DNA of 64,000 nucleotides from an uncultured Leucobacter sp. (GTDB lineage: Bacteria; Actinomycetota; Actinomycetes; Actinomycetales; Microbacteriaceae). The notes under the pieces were generated by a model, which did not search any database, was not told the DNA's origin, and was given only the letters and a program-made list of their open reading frames with translations. The stretch lies in the NCBI GenBank assembly GCA_964547775.1, contig CAZJOZ010000004.1:4286-68285 (forward strand). Direction: 5' to 3'. The translations under genes and the position numbers were made by a program. Positions 34,502-44,613 of the stretch are shown here, one piece after another; within the stretch, counting starts at the first letter, position 1; every line of letters starts with the position of its first letter.

Positions 34502-35692
34502 CTACGTGAAGACGGGCGCCTCAGGTGCTGAGACGTCAATAAAAGAGGGCGTGCCGATCGCACCGATTAAGGCTTCGAGAACAATCGCTTTCCGTTGCGT
34601 ATCAGCGACATCGCCCCACAACACCTGCGTGCCCGAGTCGAGGGTAAAGGTCACATCTTGAGCGTTTGTTGCCTGAGCCGCAACCAAACGATCGCGTAGT
34701 GAACTCGGCAAATCGCGAATCACTGATGCGACAGCCCCGAACGCAGGGGACGCGGTGTCCTGGAGTTCCGCTGATGCAAGGGGCACTCCGACGGGACGTT
34801 CAGAGACTCTGTCAATCAGCACCCCCGCTGGATCGCGAAGGTCGAAGCCGTCTTCCCGCTCATACGCCAGCACTGGCATCCGCTCTTCAACGCGGATCAG
34901 GAGAGTATGAGGCGGTATACGCTCAGTGGCGTAACTCTTGATCACGGGGAACAGCTCGAGGGCTCGATGCACCTCTTGGTCATCAACCAGCGCAAGGGGC
35001 ACGCCCTGGAACTTCTCGAGCGCACCCTCGATCTCGCTCGCACTCACCGTAGCGGCACCCTGCACGCGAATATCACGCACTGCCATAATCGGCGTATAGA
35101 CCCCGATCGCGACAAACAGTGCGAGCAAGAGCACCGCACCAATACCCACGAACCATCGACGACGACGTACCCGCTGGTGCGCGGTGAAGCGTTTCCGCTC
35201 ACCTCGTTCCCGCTGGCGTCGCTCCCGCTCCGCGAGCCGGAGGGCTTGTTTCGCCTGCCGCACGCCATCGCCCGGCCCTCCCCAACGCAAGATGCTTCGA
35301 GCCGGCTGAACAGGCACAGGAAGACTTTCAACACCGCCGCTGTCGCCGTCACGTTCGAAATGGTCGCGCATGGGTGTCCCCATCGGCACCACTGGCGCCA
35401 CGGGGGCGTCGCGCTCTGGCTCGGCCCACTCACCAACCTCGGGGATCACGGGAGGGTTCTGAGTGTTCCGCGCTGAGCCAGGAATCGCATCAGACGGAGC
35501 GGTGAGCCTCGGCGCTTTGACGCCCGATCCGGGTTCGGCACTGTTCGTTTCGGGATGGCTCATGCCCGACTCTGGTTCGGAGGTCGACGGAGTGCGACCT
35601 GATGCTCGCACTCGGTCAATCAGAGACGATCTTTTTGATTCCTCGGCAATGGGACGAGGCCGTTCCTGATCGAAACCCGAGGGACGCTTCAT
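34502..35692 (-). CDS. ftsQ: Cell division protein FtsQ/DivIB
   Basis: Long disordered N-terminus, Arg-rich stretch, single TM, POTRA domain, ends [11 protein letters not shown]. Confidence 0.92.
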
Positions 35693-37110
35693 ACCTGCTC
35701 AAATCGCCGTTTCAGTGATTCAACGATTTGAGGGATGATCTGATAGACCGTGCCGCAACTCATCGTCACCATGACGTCTCCGGGCTGAGCAAAATCCGCG
35801 AGATAGTCTGCCGCTTCTTGCCAGTCGGGCAAATAGGCAACCTTCTCAGGGGACACAAAATCATTGGAGACGAGCGCCCCAGTGACTCCGTCGACGGGAT
35901 CTTCGCGTGCACCATCGACCGCGAGCACGACCGTATGATCTGCTCCTCGTTCAAGCGCCTCAGCAAACTCGGCGTGAAACAGTTTCGTACGGCTATACAA
36001 GTGAGGCTGGTGCACGGCGATGAGGCGCCCGTCGCCAACGACGGCCCGGGCTGCTGAGAGCAACGCTGCCACCTCTGTGGGGTGATGAGCATAATCGTCG
36101 TACACCCTGACACCACCAACGTCTGCGTGGAACTCAAACCGTCGTTTGGTGCCACCAAATGTGGAGATTGCGGAAAGCGCTTCCTGCGCATCAATACCGA
36201 GCCCGACCATCACGGCAAGGGCACCAACTGCATTCACTGCGTTATAACTGCCGTACACGTGCAGTGCCGACTGATACGTTTCTCCGTTCACGGTAACGGA
36301 GAACCGCACCGGGCCGCTGTCGTCAATATCGATGATCCTGATGTCGGCCTCAGAATCAATGCCGAACGTCACGATGCGAGGGTCATCCGGCTGGGGGTTC
36401 GACCGCAATTCTTCGAGCACTTCACGCGCCCCAGGATCATCCGCGGAGATCACCACCAGTTCGCGAGCCCCTCGTGCGAACTCCACGAACGCTGCCATGA
36501 ACGCTTCACGCGACCCGTAGAAATCGAGGTGCTCAGGATCAACGTTCGTGATCAATGCCACGGCAGTGTCATACAGCAAGAATGACTTGTCACTCTCGTC
36601 TGCTTCGATCACGAAGAGGTCCTCGGCTCCCACGCCGGAACTCACCCCGAGTGACTCAATGATTCCGCCATTCACAAATGATGGGTCTTTACCAACCCCG
36701 ATCAGGCCAGTCACCAGCATCCCGGTCGAGGTCGTCTTTCCGTGCGCACCCGCAACGGACACCACACGTCGCCCTCGAGAGAGCCAGGCGAGTGCTTGCG
36801 AGCGGTGAAGCACCGGTATGTCATGCGCCAAGGCGTACTGGTACTCCGGATTGTCTTGCCAGAGGGCTCCCGTGACCACGAGGGTATCGGCATCTCCGAC
36901 GTGCGCAGCGTCATGGCCAATGTGTACAGGAATTCCCAGTGCCTCTAATGCCTCAGTGCTGTAGTTTGCACTTCTGTCGCTGCCTGTCACGCGCACCCCT
37001 GCATCGTGGAGCATCCGCGCAATGCCACTCATTCCTGAGCCGCCAATGCCAACAAAGTGGACGTTTCCCAGGTGGTCCGGGATGGTGGCCGAGAGGTCAG
37101 GATAAATCAT
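35689..37110 (-). CDS. murC: UDP-N-acetylmuramate--amino acid ligase MurC
   Basis: [35 protein letters not shown]. Start moved to ATG 37110. Confidence 0.96.
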
Positions 37111-38200
37111 CGGGTCTCCTTCGCGGGTTTGCTTCGAGTGCTTCCCGCACAAGATCGTACAGCCGCTCCGTGCCATGCAGTGATCCGACGCTTCTTGCCG
37201 CGTCACCCATCGCCGTGAGATCCGACTCACGTGAGAACAGTGGAATCAGGATGGTGCGGACCCAGTCCGGGGTGAATTCGTGGTCTTCAACCAGCAGCGC
37301 GCCGCCCGCAGTAACGACACCTGCGGCATTAAACCGCTGCTCTCCATTGCCTTGCGCGTATGGAACAAACACCGCTGGAATGCCGAGGCCAGAAAGCTCA
37401 CTCACGGTCGTTGAACCTGCTCGAGCTACCGCAATATCTGCCGCAGCGAACGCGAGATCCATTCGATCGCAGTACTCGATAACGTGATATCCGGGAAGAC
37501 CGGGATCACGGAGTTCAGTCAGCCCTCCCCACACATGGAGCACCTGCACACCCGACGCAACAAGCTCACTCGCCGCCGCGGCAACGGTCTCATTAATCGC
37601 TTTTGCACCAAGCGATCCTCCGGTCACCAGGAGCGTTCGCCGGTCAGGCTCCAGTCCGAGGGCAATTCTTGCGGGCTCTCGTTGAGCTACGCGATCCAGC
37701 GTTGTGATTTCGCGGCGCAGCGGCATCCCGGTAACCCGCGCATGACGGATTGGTGTGCCCGCAAACGTGACGCCAACGTAAGGCGTGCGCAACGCCCCTT
37801 GACGGTTTGCGAGACCAGGTTTTGCATTCGCTTCGTGGATCACATAGGGCACCCGCTCGAGATACGCTGCACGGTAAGCCGGCGCCGATGCGTAGCCGCC
37901 AAATCCGACCACAATATCGACCCCGCGCTGCCTGATGAGTGATCGGACCTCTCGCACGGCGCGGCGGTAGCGAGCGGGAAATGTCAGCGCATATGCATTG
38001 ATGCGACGGGGAAACGGGAGTCGTTCAATCGTCAGAAGCTCATATCCGCGTTGCGGCACCAGACGGGACTCCAGCCCTTCTTTGGTGCCAAGTACCGCGA
38101 TATTCGCATCTTGCTCTCTCGCCACAATTTCGTCGGCAAGCGCAAGGAGTGGATTCACGTGCCCGGCTGTGCCTCCACCTGCCAGGAGATACGTAGTCAT
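37097..38200 (-). CDS. murG: Lipid II GlcNAc transferase MurG
   Basis: [40 protein letters not shown]. Confidence 0.97.
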
Positions 38201-39429
38201 CGAGCCCCTCCCCCTGCCTCTTTCAGTTCCGCTTGATACTGCTCACCATCTCGAGCAAGAGAAATCACCACGCCCATGGCCAGCAGACACGCGATGAGGG
38301 CCGTACCTCCCGCACTAATCAACGGTAGTGGCACGCCGAGCACCGGAAAAACTCGGATCACCACCCCGATATTGATGAATGCTTGGCCAACAATCCACAC
38401 CAGAATCCCGCCGATGACGGTACGGCCAAAGCGATCACGGGCTCGACCGATCGCCCGAAGCATCGCAAGAGCAAGCACGACGTAGAGGCTAATAACCAGG
38501 AGTGCACCAACAAGACCGAGTTCCTCACCAATAATGGCAAAAATGTAGTCATTGTCTGCTGCGGGAAGCCACGACCACTTCGCTTTGGAATTCCCGAGAC
38601 CGGAACCGAAGGCACCTCCGCCTGCAAGGGCCCAGACACCATGAAGCGGCTGCCAACCCGCGCCGGAATAGTCTGCATTTCCGTCGGTGAAGCTGAACAA
38701 CCGTCGCATGCGATTCTCACTGGTGACCACCAGGAGGATCACCCCAAACAGCGCGGTTCCGGCTGTAATACCAATCGCTTTCCAGCTCAGACCACCAAAA
38801 TACATGGCACCGAGCACTGCGAGACCCATCACCATCGCGGTTCCTAGGTCACGTCCCAGCAGCACCAGCCCGAGGGCGATCGCCGCGCCCGGCAGAATCA
38901 CCGGTATCAACTCGTGCTTCACCTGGCCTAAGAGCGGTTCTTTCTTCGCCAGGATCACACCGATCCAGACGATAAGCGCAAGCTTGAGAAGCTCTGAAGG
39001 TTGCCCTCCAAACCCGCCAATTTGAATCCAGTTTCGGTTACCGTACACCTCCACACCGAGCGGCGAAAAGACAAGAAGCTGAAGGGCGAGGCCGATGCCG
39101 AGCAGCCACCACGCCCATCGTTTCCAGAAGCTGACAGGAAACCGTGCTACGACCAACATCAGCGGCACGCCGATCAGCGCATACGTTGCCTGCCGCCAAA
39201 AACCGCCGAGGAATCCGCTGTTCCCAAGGTATGACGTGATCGAGGATGATGACAACACCATGATCAACCCGATACCGAGGAGCAGAAAGGTAATCGCGTA
39301 CAGCAATGCGATGGTCAACGCAGACGACTGCATCCCCGAACTCTTGCCAAGACGAATTCTCGAAATTCCCAGCTTCGCGCCCAGTTGCACCGGTTCGGTT
39401 GGTTGCTGAAAGGTCGTCACACGCGTCAC
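38197..39429 (-). CDS. ftsW: Lipid II polymerase/flippase FtsW
   Basis: SEDS motifs QPSELLK, GRDLGT, NDYIFAIIGEELG, PLISAGGT. Confidence 0.95.
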   Translation of the reverse strand: MTRVTTFQQPTEPVQLGAKLGISRIRLGKSSGMQSSALTIALLYAITFLLLGIGLIMVLSSSSITSYLGNSGFLGGFWRQATYALIGVPLMLVVARFPVSFWKRWAWWLLGIGLALQLLVFSPLGVEVYGNRNWIQIGGFGGQPSELLKLALIVWIGVILAKKEPLLGQVKHELIPVILPGAAIALGLVLLGRDLGTAMVMGLAVLGAMYFGGLSWKAIGITAGTALFGVILLVVTSENRMRRLFSFTDGNADYSGAGWQPLHGVWALAGGGAFGSGLGNSKAKWSWLPAADNDYIFAIIGEELGLVGALLVISLYVVLALAMLRAIGRARDRFGRTVIGGILVWIVGQAFINIGVVIRVFPVLGVPLPLISAGGTALIACLLAMGVVISLARDGEQYQAELKEAGGGAR

Positions 39430-39534
39430 CTCCGCAACACCAATTCGCGTGATTCAAGTGTGCACTGCTGGCGCCATATTTCCCCACACCAAGGGAGCGT
39501 GTCGCCAAAGAACACCTCCTGCGAGGAGGGGCAT

Positions 39535-40584
39535 TCAGTCCTGGCTATAGAACCGATGCACCGCGGCGGCAATCTGCTCAGGTGACACGCCACGGGCGCG
39601 GGCGAGAGCGGCTGCGGCAAGAATCTGTTGCACCGTATGCGGTGTATTGACACTGTACTCGGCGAGCTCTTCAAGCGAGAGCAGCTCGAGGGCTTCGCGA
39701 CGCCGTTCCGGGTGAAAGCCACGGTCAATGAGCAGCCCCTCGACCATGCCGAGGCCGCTCGGCGGGGGCGTATCCAGGCCAAAGCTGATCGCACGTGCAC
39801 CCTCAACAACGTCTGCCTCTTCTACCATCAGCTCAGTTGAGGCATCGGCGCGATTATAGACACAGGCAATTCTGGTGTTTTCATACACTTTGGCGAGTGC
39901 TCGCCGATGTTCGAGGGGATCTTCGTGTGCACCTGAGGCTGAGGCGTCAAAGGTGAAACATACACTCGCGAACGGTGACATGTGGTCGATCCAGTGCAAC
40001 TGTTCACTGGAGAGATCAAGCACCAGTGCATCGTAGCCCTGAGGGTCACGAATAGCATCCAAGACAGGCATACCACCCCTACCAACTGGCGCTACCCGGA
40101 GATCGCCCTCGTAGAGCATATGAGCCGTTAATTCGGCAATACCCGGCGCTCCGTGAGAACCGGCCACGCAGATCCAATCTGCCACCCGCGGGGTCTTATC
40201 ACGCAAACGCCAGGCGAGGTCGGCGTCGCTCCAGACATGAGCGTCCCGGGCGCGAGCCCATTCGACAACCGGATCGTCAAGGGGTGTCACGGGAGTGACC
40301 ACCACAAGATCTGGATTGAACAGTTGAAATTCTTCGAGCACCGCGTCACGCGACACCTCACGGTGTTCTGCGCCAATAACCTCGAGGAGCCGAACTCGCT
40401 CGGGATCCGAGGCGGTGTGAATGACACGTACGTCGCTGCCGAGTTCTGTGAGGGTGTCTGCGATGGAAAAACCAATCTCCCCCAGGCCATACACCCCTAC
40501 GGTGAGACCGGACCAATCATCGTGCCAACTCGCGAGTGAGTCGAGCCGCTGCTGCGCCGTCGCACTCACTGCCGCAGGGTCCAT
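39535..40584 (-). CDS. murD: Degenerate, C-terminally truncated MurD homologue (probable pseudoenzyme)
   Basis: Syntenic slot between mraY and ftsW and MurD-like N-terminus ([19 protein letters not shown]). P-loop is GSHGAPG, ELSS motif reads DLSSEQL, and the ORF stops where the third domain would begin (349 aa). Confidence 0.85.
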
Positions 40585-41648
40585 TCTGCGTAGAGGGCAC
40601 CGATCCCTGACAGCACGAACAGGCCGGCAATAATCCAGAAGCGGACAACCACTTTGGTTTCATCCCACCCCTTCAGCTCGAAGTGATGGTGAATGGGACT
40701 CATGCGGAAGATCCGTTTACCCTTGGTGATCTTGAAGTACGCCCGTTGCACAATCACTGAGCCAGACTCAATGACGAAGAGGCCACCGATCAGTACGAGA
40801 AGCAGTTCGGTGTGGGTCAGAATCGCGAACGCCGCAATGGCACCTCCGAGACCCAGCGAGCCAGTATCGCCCATATAAATTTGGGCAGGGTTTGCATTCC
40901 ACCACAGGAATCCGATCAGTCCACCGACGAGTGCACCGGCAAACACCGCGAGGTCCAGAGGATCTCGCACCTCGTAACACCCAGGCTCAATACCTCGCGC
41001 ACACAGCTGGTTGAATTGCCAGAATGCGATGACTGCATATGCGCCGATCGCGAGTATCGATGCGCCGCCGGCAAGCCCGTCGAGACCATCCGTCACATTG
41101 ACCGAATTCGACGCGCTCGTGACGATCACAATGATCCACAGCAGAAAGAGAATCAGTCCAAGGACCGAGCCGAGTGACATGAAGTCGAACGGCAGGTCGC
41201 GGATGAACGAAATATGTGTGCTCGCAGGCGTGAGTCCATTCTGATCAGCAAATTGAATGGCCAACAGCCCAAACGTGACGGCCACAATGACCTGCCCGGC
41301 GATTTTTGCCCAGCCACCAAGCCCGAGGGATTGCTGCTTCCGTGTTTTCAAGAAATCATCGATGAACCCGACCGCCCCGAGTCCAACGGTCATGAGAATT
41401 GCCAGCACTGCCGACGCGCTCGGCGCGGTGCCCGTGATGCCGTGCGCCGCAAAATAGCCGATCACCGCCCCCGAAATAAAAATGAGGCCACCCATCGTCG
41501 GGGTACCACGTTTTGCATAGTGGGATTGGGGTCCATCCTCACGAATGAACTGTCCCCATTTCAATCGACGAAATCCACGAATGAACAAGGGTGTCAGGAA
41601 CAGACTGAACAGCAACGACAGTCCTGCGGCGATAAGGAGGTTGATCAT
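40566..41648 (-). CDS. mraY: Phospho-N-acetylmuramoyl-pentapeptide transferase
   Basis: [46 protein letters not shown]. Confidence 0.97.
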
Positions 41649-43051
41649 GCGAGCGCCTCCCCCAGCCGGTCCCCGAGCGCCTGCAACCCTGCCGAATTTG
41701 AGCCTTTGACAAGGATCACATCACGGGGGCGCACACGACTCATGAGGTATGCGAATGCTTCGTCTTGATCTTCGACGAACACACTCTCTCCGTCCCACGA
41801 TCCCTCATTGATCGCACTGATGTGCAGGCGGCGCGCTTCGGCACCAACCACGATCAGTTCACTAATGCCGAGTCGTACTGCGAGCAATCCAAGTTGATCG
41901 TGTGCCTCTCCGGAGAACTCGCCGAGCTCCGCCATCTTTCCCAGCACGGCGACCGTGCGAGACGAGGGATCCGCGATGAGAGCGAGTGTTTTGAGCGCGG
42001 CCCGCATGCTGTCGGGGCTCGCATTGTATGCATCGTTAATGACCGTAATGCCGTCGCGACACGGGAGGACTTGCATTCGCCCCGGTGCCGCAATCGTGGC
42101 TGCTTCGAGGGTGGTGACAATGTCGTCAATTCCCATTCCGAGTTCCGTCGCAACGGCCGCAGCGGCAAGAGCGTTCATGACGTGGTGCTCACCAAGAACC
42201 TGAAAGTGTACGTTCTTCGACTGGCTGCCCACCCACAGGGTGAAGGTTGTGCCCGAAGCAGATGCGACGACCTCGCTTGCGCGAACATGCGCATCATCTC
42301 GCAGTCCGAACCACACGACTCTCGCGGAGGTAAGGTCGGCCATTTTCGCAACCCACGGGTCATCTCTGTTGAGCACGGCGACCGCATCGTCGGGCAGATC
42401 ACGAACCATTTCTGATTTTGCTGCAAACGTCCCCTCAATTCCGCCGAACTCGCCAACGTGGGCGAGACCAACAGAGAGCACGACAGCAATGTGCGGGGGT
42501 GCCATGGTCGTCAGACGAGCAATTTCGCCTGATGCACTCGCACCCATTTCAGCCACTAATATCTCGGTACCCGATTCAACCCGTAGCATCGTCAGAGGCC
42601 CACCAACTTCATTGTTGAATGACTTCTCACTTGCCACGGTTGACCCGATTTGCTCTGCCATAGCGGCAACAAGGTTCTTAGTCGTTGTCTTGCCGTTGGA
42701 TCCGGTGATCGCCACAATTCGAAATGCGTGATCCTCCAATTTGCGCGCTATCACGAATTGCGCCAGCAGCCCGAGCGCGACCGTGGCGTCCTCGACCACC
42801 ACCTGTGGCACTCGTTCCTCGCCTTCGTGCTCGACGATCAGCAAGGCGGCTCCACGCTCTACCGCCTGTGGCACGAATCGATGGCCATCGGTGGTCTCAC
42901 CGCGTCGCGCAACAAATATCTGCCCGGGCTGCACCTCACGGGAATCGGTTTGTGCTGCGCCACGTATGCGCTGCGAAGGGTCACCGTCAGGGTTCATCAC
43001 GAGCCGGCCTCCCACAGCGCACGCGATCTCATCCGGTGTCAATGCAATCAC
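41645..43051 (-). CDS. murF: UDP-MurNAc-tripeptide--D-Ala-D-Ala ligase
   Basis: [31 protein letters not shown]. Confidence 0.96.
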
Positions 43052-44613
43052 TCAAGCAGTCCTGCCTCGCGGAGAGCTCCGCGTACCTCATCCCTTGCCG
43101 AATACGCAACCTGCACGCCAGCAATGTCCTGATGCTCTTCATGACCAGGGCCCGCATACAGAATAACGTCGCCTGGTCGCGCGAGCGAAATAGCCAGACG
43201 AATCGCAGCCCTCGGATCTGGCTCTTCATACACCTCGGCACGTGCGGCATCATGAGCACCTGCAAGTAACTGTTGGCGTATAGCTGCGGGGTCCTCAGTC
43301 CGCGGGTGGTAGTCACAGATGATCACCACATCGCTCCCCCGAGCGGCGATTCGCCCCATCTCCTCGCGCTTCGATTGATCCCGATCGCCATCGGCACCGA
43401 ACATAAAGATAATCCGCCCCTGGGTGACTTCGCTTAAGGCATCGAGCGTGGCCCGGAATGCTCCAGGGGTATGACCGTAGTCCACGAAGAAACGTATCTT
43501 TGCGTCGGTCGGTTCCTGGGCAAGCTCTTTGGGAGTGATTTCTTCAAGCCTGCCCGGGATGTAGACAGGAATGACACCGCGATCGAGTCCATCCGCAACC
43601 CGCTCAAGGCTCACCCCTGCTTCATGCAGCATGATCAGCGCAAGCGCAGCGTTCTCTGCCATGAACCGCCCAAACATCGGCACAGATCCACGAAAATACT
43701 GACCGGCAGGACCTTGCAACACAAAGCCGACCCCATCGAGACTTTGCCAGGTTACGGCAAGGTGCCAGTCCGCATCCACCCCAAACTCGGTGGAAAGCGT
43801 TGCCACGGGAATGCGGGATTCCCGAGCGATTCGTTGGCCGTGCACGGTATCTACCACGACAACCCCGCGTTCGGCGCGTTCGGGCGAGAAGAGAGACAGC
43901 TTTGCCTGGAAATAGGTTTCCATATCACCAAAATCGTCCAGGTGATCCTGCGAAAAATTATTGAAGGCAACCACATTGAAATGGAGGCCGTCAATTCTTC
44001 TGCGGACTGTGGCGTGCGCCGACACTTCAATGGTGATCGCTTCTGCGCCCTCCTCGTGCATCCTCGCAAGCAATGCATGGAGTTCGGGGGCTTCGGGGCT
44101 CGTCAGCCCGGAAGGCATCACGGTGCCATTGACTCGCCGTTCGGCAGTTGAGCTGAGTCCTGAACGAAACCCAGCCCGGCGAAGCAGCTCGTCAAGCAAA
44201 TAGACAACGCTCGTCTTCCCATTTGTCCCCGTCACTCCAAAGGTGATGCGCTGACATGCGTTCGTCGCATACACCTTCGCCGAGAGCTGTCCGAGTACCG
44301 CGCGAGCCTCGTCAGGGGTTACCAGTATGGGCACCTCAGCCCCCGCCTGCTGCACCAGAGAAAGCGCTGACTCGTCGCAGAACACCGCCACGGCGCCCCG
44401 CGAAACTGCGTCTGAAAGGTAATCCGCCCCGTGTGTGCGCGCACCCGGAATCGCGGCATACAAGTCGCCCGGCCGAACATCCCGGGAGTCGAGGGTCACG
44501 CCTCGAACCAGAACGCCGTCAGTATTGCCGAGAATACGCATGCCGAACTCTGTGCGAAGAGTTTCGAGCGTCAGCGGAAGTTGACGCGTTGGGCGAATGG
44601 TCTTGCTGGTCAC
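43048..44613 (-). CDS. murE: UDP-MurNAc-dipeptide--third amino acid ligase
   Basis: GVTGTNGKTS, TSPEAP, EVSAH, SQDHLD, FVDYGHTP; specificity loop reads DYHPR. Confidence 0.95.
   Translation of the reverse strand: MTSKTIRPTRQLPLTLETLRTEFGMRILGNTDGVLVRGVTLDSRDVRPGDLYAAIPGARTHGADYLSDAVSRGAVAVFCDESALSLVQQAGAEVPILVTPDEARAVLGQLSAKVYATNACQRITFGVTGTNGKTSVVYLLDELLRRAGFRSGLSSTAERRVNGTVMPSGLTSPEAPELHALLARMHEEGAEAITIEVSAHATVRRRIDGLHFNVVAFNNFSQDHLDDFGDMETYFQAKLSLFSPERAERGVVVVDTVHGQRIARESRIPVATLSTEFGVDADWHLAVTWQSLDGVGFVLQGPAGQYFRGSVPMFGRFMAENAALALIMLHEAGVSLERVADGLDRGVIPVYIPGRLEEITPKELAQEPTDAKIRFFVDYGHTPGAFRATLDALSEVTQGRIIFMFGADGDRDQSKREEMGRIAARGSDVVIICDYHPRTEDPAAIRQQLLAGAHDAARAEVYEEPDPRAAIRLAISLARPGDVILYAGPGHEEHQDIAGVQVAYSARDEVRGALREAGLLE

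Follow-up and report, generated by a model that had tools for sequence, protein, structure and literature searches.

Why would a bacterium keep a murD gene in its usual place when that gene appears to have lost everything needed for ligation, and what supplies the missing step? The question is raised by a 64,000-nucleotide stretch of DNA from an uncultured Leucobacter sp. (GenBank assembly GCA_964547775.1, contig CAZJOZ010000004.1, positions 4,286 to 68,285), referred to here as the window. Its minus strand carries the division and cell wall (dcw) cluster in the order rsmH, ftsL-like, ftsI, murE, murF, mraY, truncated murD, ftsW, murG, murC, ftsQ and ftsZ. The open reading frame (ORF) between mraY and ftsW encodes a truncated, catalytically dead MurD homologue. 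It is, we consider with fair confidence, a retained MurD-derived pseudoenzyme with a probable structural (scaffold) role, left after glutamate racemase (MurI) and MurD were replaced by MurD2 and MurL. The MurD2/MurL pathway itself has been described before, whereas neither its occurrence in Leucobacter nor the convergent two-domain MurD remnant under selection seems to have been reported. A literature search returned no account of a retained dead or pseudoenzyme MurD, and a bioRxiv preprint that relates MurD to cell size deals with the level of the enzyme, not a non-catalytic role (PMC11870628).

The ORF (39535-40584, minus strand) runs for 349 stop-free codons from an ATG at 40584, ends in AVHRFYSQD* and overlaps the mraY stop codon (40566-40568) by 19 nt. 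A GTG at 40569 overlaps the mraY TGA by 4 nt (GTGA), and orthologues were called from the equivalent start; judged from the sequence, this GTG is more likely to be the true start, giving a protein of 344 rather than 349 amino acids (39535..40569) with N-terminal and central Mur-ligase domains only. Such an overlap with mraY is typical of translational coupling. Within the frame, the P-loop reads GSHGAPG (40141..40161, codons 142-148) in place of the canonical Leucobacter GTNGKTT, with the catalytic Lys changed to Ala. The SPG motif for binding of UDP-MurNAc (UDP-N-acetylmuramic acid) is replaced by TPV (40288..40296), and ELSSFQL, which provides the Mg ligand Glu and a substrate-contact Phe, is replaced by DLSSEQL (39997..40017). 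An altered stretch of 10 residues stands in place of N-x-A-D-D-H-L-D-W-H and its Asp/His catalytic pair (39925..39954), and Leu230 (39895..39897) stands where the carbamylated Lys (E. coli K198) would be, a residue missing from all truncated orthologues. The P-loops of MurC (GAHGKTTS), MurE (GTNGKTS) and MurF (GSNGKTTT), encoded in the same cluster, are intact. On re-reading, the first-pass annotation was found accurate in all of these particulars: the uninterrupted frame, its overlap, its end, the 105 nt separating it from ftsW, the motif losses and the intact P-loops of its neighbours; the change to Leu230 is an addition to what it listed. In other truncated orthologues the P-loop site reads GSSGAAG, GSPEAAM, GARGKTT, GSRDTAE or GAGGTEI; on this alignment, the site is evolving without constraint.

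Loss of the third domain was apparent from profile searches. Against TIGR01087 (murD), the truncated ORF scored 104.8 bits (103.4 bits in the genome scan) with a cut-off of 211.95, and because the match stops at position 302 of the 441 in the profile (1-302), the C-terminal domain is taken to be absent. Pfam gave only a sub-threshold MurD-like_N match to the ORF, with no match to PF02875 (Mur_ligase_C) or PF08245, and the protein ends at the boundary between domains 2 and 3. Reading of the 105-nt spacer to ftsW (39430..39534, with the ftsW GTG at 39429) in three frames revealed no recognisable remnant of a C-terminal domain, in agreement with the earlier proposal that this domain was deleted rather than frameshifted. 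A weak hairpin with a T-rich tail, CCTCCTCGCAGGAGG then TGTTCTTTGG, lies just past the stop codon (39515-39529, minus strand); it was considered as a terminator and rejected, as this sole hairpin is weak and at chance level (1 found, 1.0 expected). By its sequence, the truncated MurD is unable to work as a ligase through the known mechanism.

The D-glutamate (D-Glu) ligase activity had been supposed to reside in a displaced enzyme elsewhere in the genome, to be sought by a whole-genome profile search for a second murD. One was found in the window's own genome (G000; 1.86 Mb, 151 contigs, 94.8% complete), at positions 3196-4506 of contig C15 (278 bits on TIGR01087, profile 2-440), complete with all three Pfam Mur domains and a P-loop that reads GTKGKSTT. 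The supposition was thus right as to a complete MurD-type ligase on another contig, but apparently wrong as to its type: the enzyme seems to be not a D-Glu ligase but a MurD2, lying directly downstream of a 483-amino acid MurL homologue on the same strand, with the two ORFs overlapping. A search with the TIGR00067 profile gave no match to MurI in this genome. In the X. oryzae route, MurD2 adds L-Glu and MurL then epimerises the nucleotide precursor using ATP (Feng et al. 2017; reviewed in PMC8788868 and PMC5808125). Residues named in a review as setting MurD2 apart from E. coli MurD are X. oryzae E197, R358, P433 and F435 (PMC8788868); when aligned to E. coli MurD, the C15 ligase has Glu (PEH) at D182 and Pro/Phe (APSF) at A414/L416, as does X. 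oryzae MurD2. Catalytic motifs are invariant across the nine MurD2-like copies found in Leucobacter, and the ratio of non-synonymous to synonymous substitution (dN/dS) is 0.10–0.21 for these copies and 0.10–0.28 for MurD2 and MurL together. Based on this homology and on the absence of MurI, D-Glu is most likely installed here by MurD2 as an L-Glu ligase and MurL as an epimerase. Two observations count against so exact an assignment. The MurL homologue matches NCBIfam NF041275 at E 2e-101 and 339.6 bits (profile 35-419 of 447), where the equivalog cut-off is 700 bits and tuned to Xanthomonadales, so that the match shows homology rather than equivalog status; and all nine Leucobacter copies carry Leu where X. 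oryzae has R358. With the MurD2/MurL pair present and MurI absent, the dcw murD would be dispensable as an enzyme.

The same combination was seen across the genus. Of 86 Leucobacter genomes, nine encode MurL; none of these nine has MurI (TIGR00067), which is present in all nine non-carriers tested. The dcw MurD is degenerate in every one of the nine carriers, being truncated at the same place in seven and full-length in two (G024 and G090). In these two, the ATP-side motifs are kept, SPG and GNIG are lost, and the D-Glu motifs of the third domain are ruined (DDAAATN for DDSKATN and SPAAAPG.QF for SPAAASMDQF). All non-carriers with a copy that could be read whole have a full-length GTNGKTT MurD of about 370 bits; the copies not readable in this way were those of G016, which is divided between two frames, and of G017, which is situated at a contig end. 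The G016 murD (L034; one contig, no MurL) is split near the P-loop, with matches to q8-173 and q159-345 and one TGA. Since there is no MurL in that genome to replace murD, the split is probably an indel error of long-read assembly.

Could the truncation, or the lack of MurI, simply come from a faulty metagenome-assembled genome (MAG)? The window's genome is a 151-contig draft of 94.8% completeness, which leaves room for such an artefact, but independent assemblies refute it and we regard its likelihood as negligible. Further truncated copies recovered by protein search always lay between mraY and ftsW. They include a 99%-identical copy of the same architecture on an independent contig of another run (SRR21722026); a 73%-identical orthologue on four contigs, of which the three shown are from three different samples (an NCBI metagenome assembly, DRR835043 and SRR29457780); a 57% form in two Joint Genome Institute (JGI) metagenomes; and two forms of a second group, clade B. 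Moreover, the same degenerate-MurD state without MurI is found in finished or near-finished genomes of isolates, G099 (one contig) and G024 (ten contigs). Clade A, to which the window copy and the 73%-identical orthologue (G068/P0005) belong, has long branches and small genomes (1.86 Mb for G000 and 2.0 Mb for G068, vs 2.7–4.1 Mb for the genus), and gives the impression of a Leucobacter lineage with a reduced genome, known chiefly through metagenomes.

To establish how the remnant is evolving, dN/dS was determined pairwise by the Nei–Gojobori method (NG86), YN00 being unstable or undefined for many pairs; in clade A comparisons synonymous sites were saturated, and values there are upper bounds only. 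Truncated clade B copies compared with one another gave dN/dS of 0.14–0.45, with codon bootstraps never above 0.62, and the window copy against its 99% relative gave 0.065. The full-length degenerate pair G024/G090 gave 0.076. Seven neighbouring genes had values of 0.10–0.25. Between the window copy and the 73% orthologue P0005, differences at first, second and third codon positions were 0.22, 0.13 and 0.63, the same pattern as for murF (0.20, 0.15 and 0.60). The remnant is under purifying selection at the protein level and does not look like a unitary pseudogene, which would show frameshifts or stops and dN/dS near 1; this bears out the earlier suggestion that selection retains a non-catalytic form. 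It had also been proposed that simple decay or assembly error would be indicated if close relatives carried an active full-length murD while this copy showed dN/dS near 1. Relatives with an active murD do exist, and they are those that keep MurI and have no MurL; a dN/dS near 1 was not observed.

Where the constraint lies was resolved along the protein. In residues 121-230, which contain the catalytic motifs, dN/dS is 0.07–0.08 among canonical MurD proteins vs 0.30–0.64 among remnants; in residues 231-344 it stays at 0.13–0.23. Invariant positions, shared by truncated and canonical proteins alike, make up 106 of the 344 aligned. A further 24 are fixed in canonical proteins and three outgroups yet free in the remnants, and these fall mostly in SPG, the P-loop, GNIG, SSF, DH..WH and at the carbamylated Lys. 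From these alignments, constraint has been lost at active-site positions only.

These values were set against the view that the ORF is a decaying pseudogene, neutral since the takeover by MurD2/MurL, caught in mid-erosion and open by chance in a high-GC genome. Such decay would account for the disappearance of all catalytic motifs and one whole domain, and for a P-loop that drifts freely among orthologues; high-GC DNA, moreover, yields long chance ORFs. Two observations also count on its side and against selective retention. Constraint on the remnant is partly relaxed, with dN/dS about 1.5–2 times that of the neighbours and reaching 0.43 on the G018 lineage, and in the G068 MAG (L076 / L081) the truncated murD stops early at an additional TGA, some 20 codons short of its usual end (...AAAASA*), which near-identical P0005 copies from other samples do not share. 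Nevertheless, every truncated pair stays well short of a dN/dS of 1 even at the bootstrap maxima, and the full-length degenerate pair gives one of the low values reported above. No frameshift was found in truncated copies from independent sources, spanning lineages with saturated synonymous sites (dS >2), and the G068 stop, a late one, is the only one. The invariant positions, and the recurrence of one domain boundary in two to three independent truncations, are likewise difficult to reconcile with neutrality. Decay is largely refuted by the dN/dS values and by this convergence, and we consider it improbable.

What is selected might instead be the DNA or RNA, or translation as such, with the ORF serving mraY–ftsW coupling, an internal promoter or a spacing needed for ftsW expression. 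The GTGA start overlap with mraY fits this proposal, as does the position of the gene between two essential genes of one operon, and in clade B the truncated murD stop is 5 nt from the ftsW start. Selection of that kind, however, would keep the frame or the nucleotides and would not lower non-synonymous relative to synonymous change, whereas third positions differ at 0.63 vs 0.13–0.22 at first and second positions. The constraint is also concentrated in particular regions of the protein and absent at active-site codons. A role at the nucleotide level alone is therefore given little credence, marginally less than decay.

The two-domain form appears to have arisen repeatedly. A maximum likelihood tree of seven flanking proteins (3,407 columns) placed carriers in at least three separate positions: the P0117 metagenomic lineage and clade A (window, G068/P0005) near the base, clade B nested among canonical species, and G024/G090 as sister to a canonical species. 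Forcing the truncated carriers to be monophyletic cost 363 log-likelihood units (approximately unbiased test, p-AU 2e-111), and forcing all MurL carriers together cost 647. Since the flank tree rejects monophyly, the two-domain remnant would have arisen independently, at least two times and probably three. In keeping with this, remnants of clade B match the active MurD of neighbouring species at 73–76% identity, and clade A at 56%. Taken by itself, the MurD gene tree unites all the truncated forms, but weakly (ultrafast bootstrap 51, SH-like approximate likelihood ratio test 95), a grouping that we attribute to attraction between relaxed sequences; holding clades A and B together without P0117 was rejected on that tree (p-AU 0.012). 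A single origin of the truncation was considered and is ruled out by the seven-gene flank tree and by the affinity of clade B to canonical MurD. The stops fall within a few residues of one another (...F-YSQD*, ...F-HRLA* and ...Y-QNFSG* vs ...Y-HRAxRERE*). As the MurL carriers are not monophyletic, the murL-murD2 pair was either mobile within the genus or subject to many losses.

If the protein itself is selected, it may have gained a new activity, for example as a nucleotide-independent transferase, as a carrier or sensor of UDP-MurNAc-L-Ala feeding MurD2, or as a regulator of MurD2/MurL. Strong selection would agree with this, as would the predicted retention of the fold of two substrate-binding domains, and some clade B members keep GKTT. 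A Tyr to His change at codon 56 of the 349-codon ORF (40417-40419; VRVIY to VRVIH) has become fixed across independent clades, in 9 of 10 truncated copies. No other convergent fixed replacement was found, and this one lies in the N-domain region that aligns with the uracil-binding loop of E. coli MurD. On the other side, no candidate active-site residue is conserved among the truncated orthologues, the UDP-contact motifs (GxTG Thr, SPG and GNIG) and the ATP/Mg motifs vary freely, and the protein lacks the domain by which the active site is closed. A new activity is hence judged unlikely, although somewhat less so than the two preceding alternatives. The UDP-MurNAc-peptide sensor put forward in the first-pass annotation becomes less plausible for the same reason, as the UDP-binding motifs (GxTG Thr, SPG) have decayed too.

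The preferred explanation, replacement followed by retention as a scaffold, would run as follows. In this Leucobacter lineage MurI and MurD have very probably been replaced by MurD2 and MurL. Relieved of D-Glu and of its catalytic task, the dcw murD has shed its active-site residues and its entire C-terminal, amino-acid-binding domain; the two-domain protein would still be translated from the mraY-coupled start, and purifying selection acts on its amino acid sequence. The remnant may then hold the place of full MurD in a transient assembly of Mur ligases, MraY and FtsW, with MurD2 and MurL supplying the product. In such a role the protein could do without its C-terminal domain and nucleotide binding, but would need its fold and the central domain's distal half. 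Contacts of this kind have precedents: MurD of B. pertussis binds MurE–MurF with a dissociation constant of ~0.8 μM, independently of cofactors, natural MurD–FtsW fusions occur in Actinobacteria (PMC10214165), and MurG has been proposed as a scaffold for the Mur ligases (PMC6420597). By analogy, the remnant probably acts as a scaffold linking the Mur ligases to MraY and FtsW. It is a more tentative suggestion, on which our opinion is nearly balanced but leans slightly towards doubt, that MurD in general plays a non-catalytic part that can be separated from ligation and, through contacts with MurE/MurF, MraY or FtsW, organises peptidoglycan synthesis in both its cytoplasmic and its membrane steps.

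Several considerations weigh against the scaffold explanation. Its central element, the role itself, is deduced by analogy, and transcription and translation of the remnant are deduced from its operon position and dN/dS. The structural evidence has to be read with care: the AlphaFold2 model of the truncated MurD has high overall scores (predicted local distance difference test 92.7, predicted TM-score 0.90), but the alignment behind it is dominated by canonical MurD, so that the confidence is inflated and partly reflects the family fold. Xanthomonas is not known to carry any murD in its dcw cluster, so a scaffold role would not be universal. A Foldseek search with the model gave MurD proteins for all of the top 30 matches (TMq 0.66–0.77; best 0.70–0.77), MurD structures being the closest in the PDB, and as far as the model can be trusted, the MurD-type N-terminal and central fold is retained.

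The remaining genes around the remnant are arranged as follows, all on the minus strand. Upstream lie murE (43048-44613, P-loop intact), murF (41645-43051, intact P-loop GSNGKTTT) and mraY (40566..41648), the TGA stop of which overlaps the GTG start of the truncated murD. Downstream are ftsW (38197..39429), encoding the SEDS polymerase (PF01098 in the orthologous locus), murG (37097-38200) and murC (35689-37230 as listed, P-loop intact). As listed, the murC ORF encodes 513 amino acids from a GTG, shares more than 130 nt with murG and has an implausible N-terminal extension; its actual start probably lies about 40 codons further in, at the Met of MIYPDLS....

The surroundings of the murL-murD2 pair were also recorded. 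In all nine carriers (L065, L067, L086-L090, L009) the pair lies beside the same gene of ~1000 amino acids, of the APH/aminotransferase kind, in the order murL-murD2-aminotransferase in clade A and aminotransferase-murL-murD2 in clade B and G024/G090. On contig C15 (L009:85-4578, minus strand), MurD2 has no stop and continues in frame into this gene, a PRK06149-type APH plus class-III aminotransferase, to form an ORF of 1497 amino acids. In G068 a TGA closes MurD2 2 bases before the aminotransferase ATG, where the window genome reads TCATCACAA, with one extra base; the joint ORF could be either a real fusion or an error of the draft assembly. Published hosts of MurD2/MurL are Xanthomonadales, some Alphaproteobacteria and Micromonosporaceae (PMC8788868). 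MurL homologues with 51–58% identity were seen in genome contigs (L100-L136) of Nocardioides, Aeromicrobium, Pimelobacter simplex, Microbacterium gubbeenense, Ca. Microbacterium stercoravium, Bifidobacteriaceae MAGs and Saccharothrix, with remoter ones (32–36%) in Saccharibacteria and other members of the candidate phyla radiation, Omnitrophota and Phycisphaeraceae. As judged by homology, the spread of MurL is well beyond the published range.

Whether the Mur enzymes form a physical complex is an old and unsettled question, for which the evidence consists of in vitro affinities and gene fusions. If the explanation given here is true, a selected dead MurD in several independent lineages would amount to a natural separation-of-function allele. 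It would point to the parts of MurD that matter beyond catalysis, namely the fold, the N-terminal WHDDWSGL segment and central-domain residues 231-344, and cultivable carrier strains exist in which a non-catalytic role could be tested, among them L. celer subsp. astrifaciens CBX151, L. massiliensis 122RC15 and Leucobacter sp. wl10. The MurD2/MurL route would be extended to Leucobacter and, by MurL homology, to Nocardioides, Aeromicrobium, Pimelobacter, some Microbacterium and Bifidobacteriaceae MAGs, and this wider host range bears on proposals of the route as a narrow-spectrum drug target. Caution is also called for in annotation, as remnants are sometimes named as active D-glutamate ligases; the P0117 remnant, for example, bears the JGI name 'UDP-N-acetylmuramoylalanine--D-glutamate ligase'.

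Three known systems are suited to comparison with this locus. The Mur-ligase complexes and chimeras (MurE–MurF and MurD–FtsW; PMC10214165, PMC6420597) provide the precedent for MurD contacts and the basis of the scaffold proposal; those studies used active enzymes, whereas the present case is a dead two-domain MurD. The active Leucobacter MurD is homologous to the truncated form, occupies the same mraY–ftsW slot and is 55–60% identical to it, but the truncated form is without the C-terminal domain, the P-loop Lys, the Mg-ligand environment, the Asp/His pair, the carbamylated Lys, SPG and GNIG. With respect to MurD2 and MurL, Leucobacter and the Microbacteriaceae are outside the published list of hosts (PMC8788868), and the Leucobacter copies differ from X. 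oryzae MurD2 in carrying Leu at the R358 position. With X. oryzae XOO_1320/XOO_1319, the genome of the window shares the adjacent murL-murD2 arrangement, the lack of MurI and the Glu and Pro/Phe residues at the D182 and A414/L416 positions.

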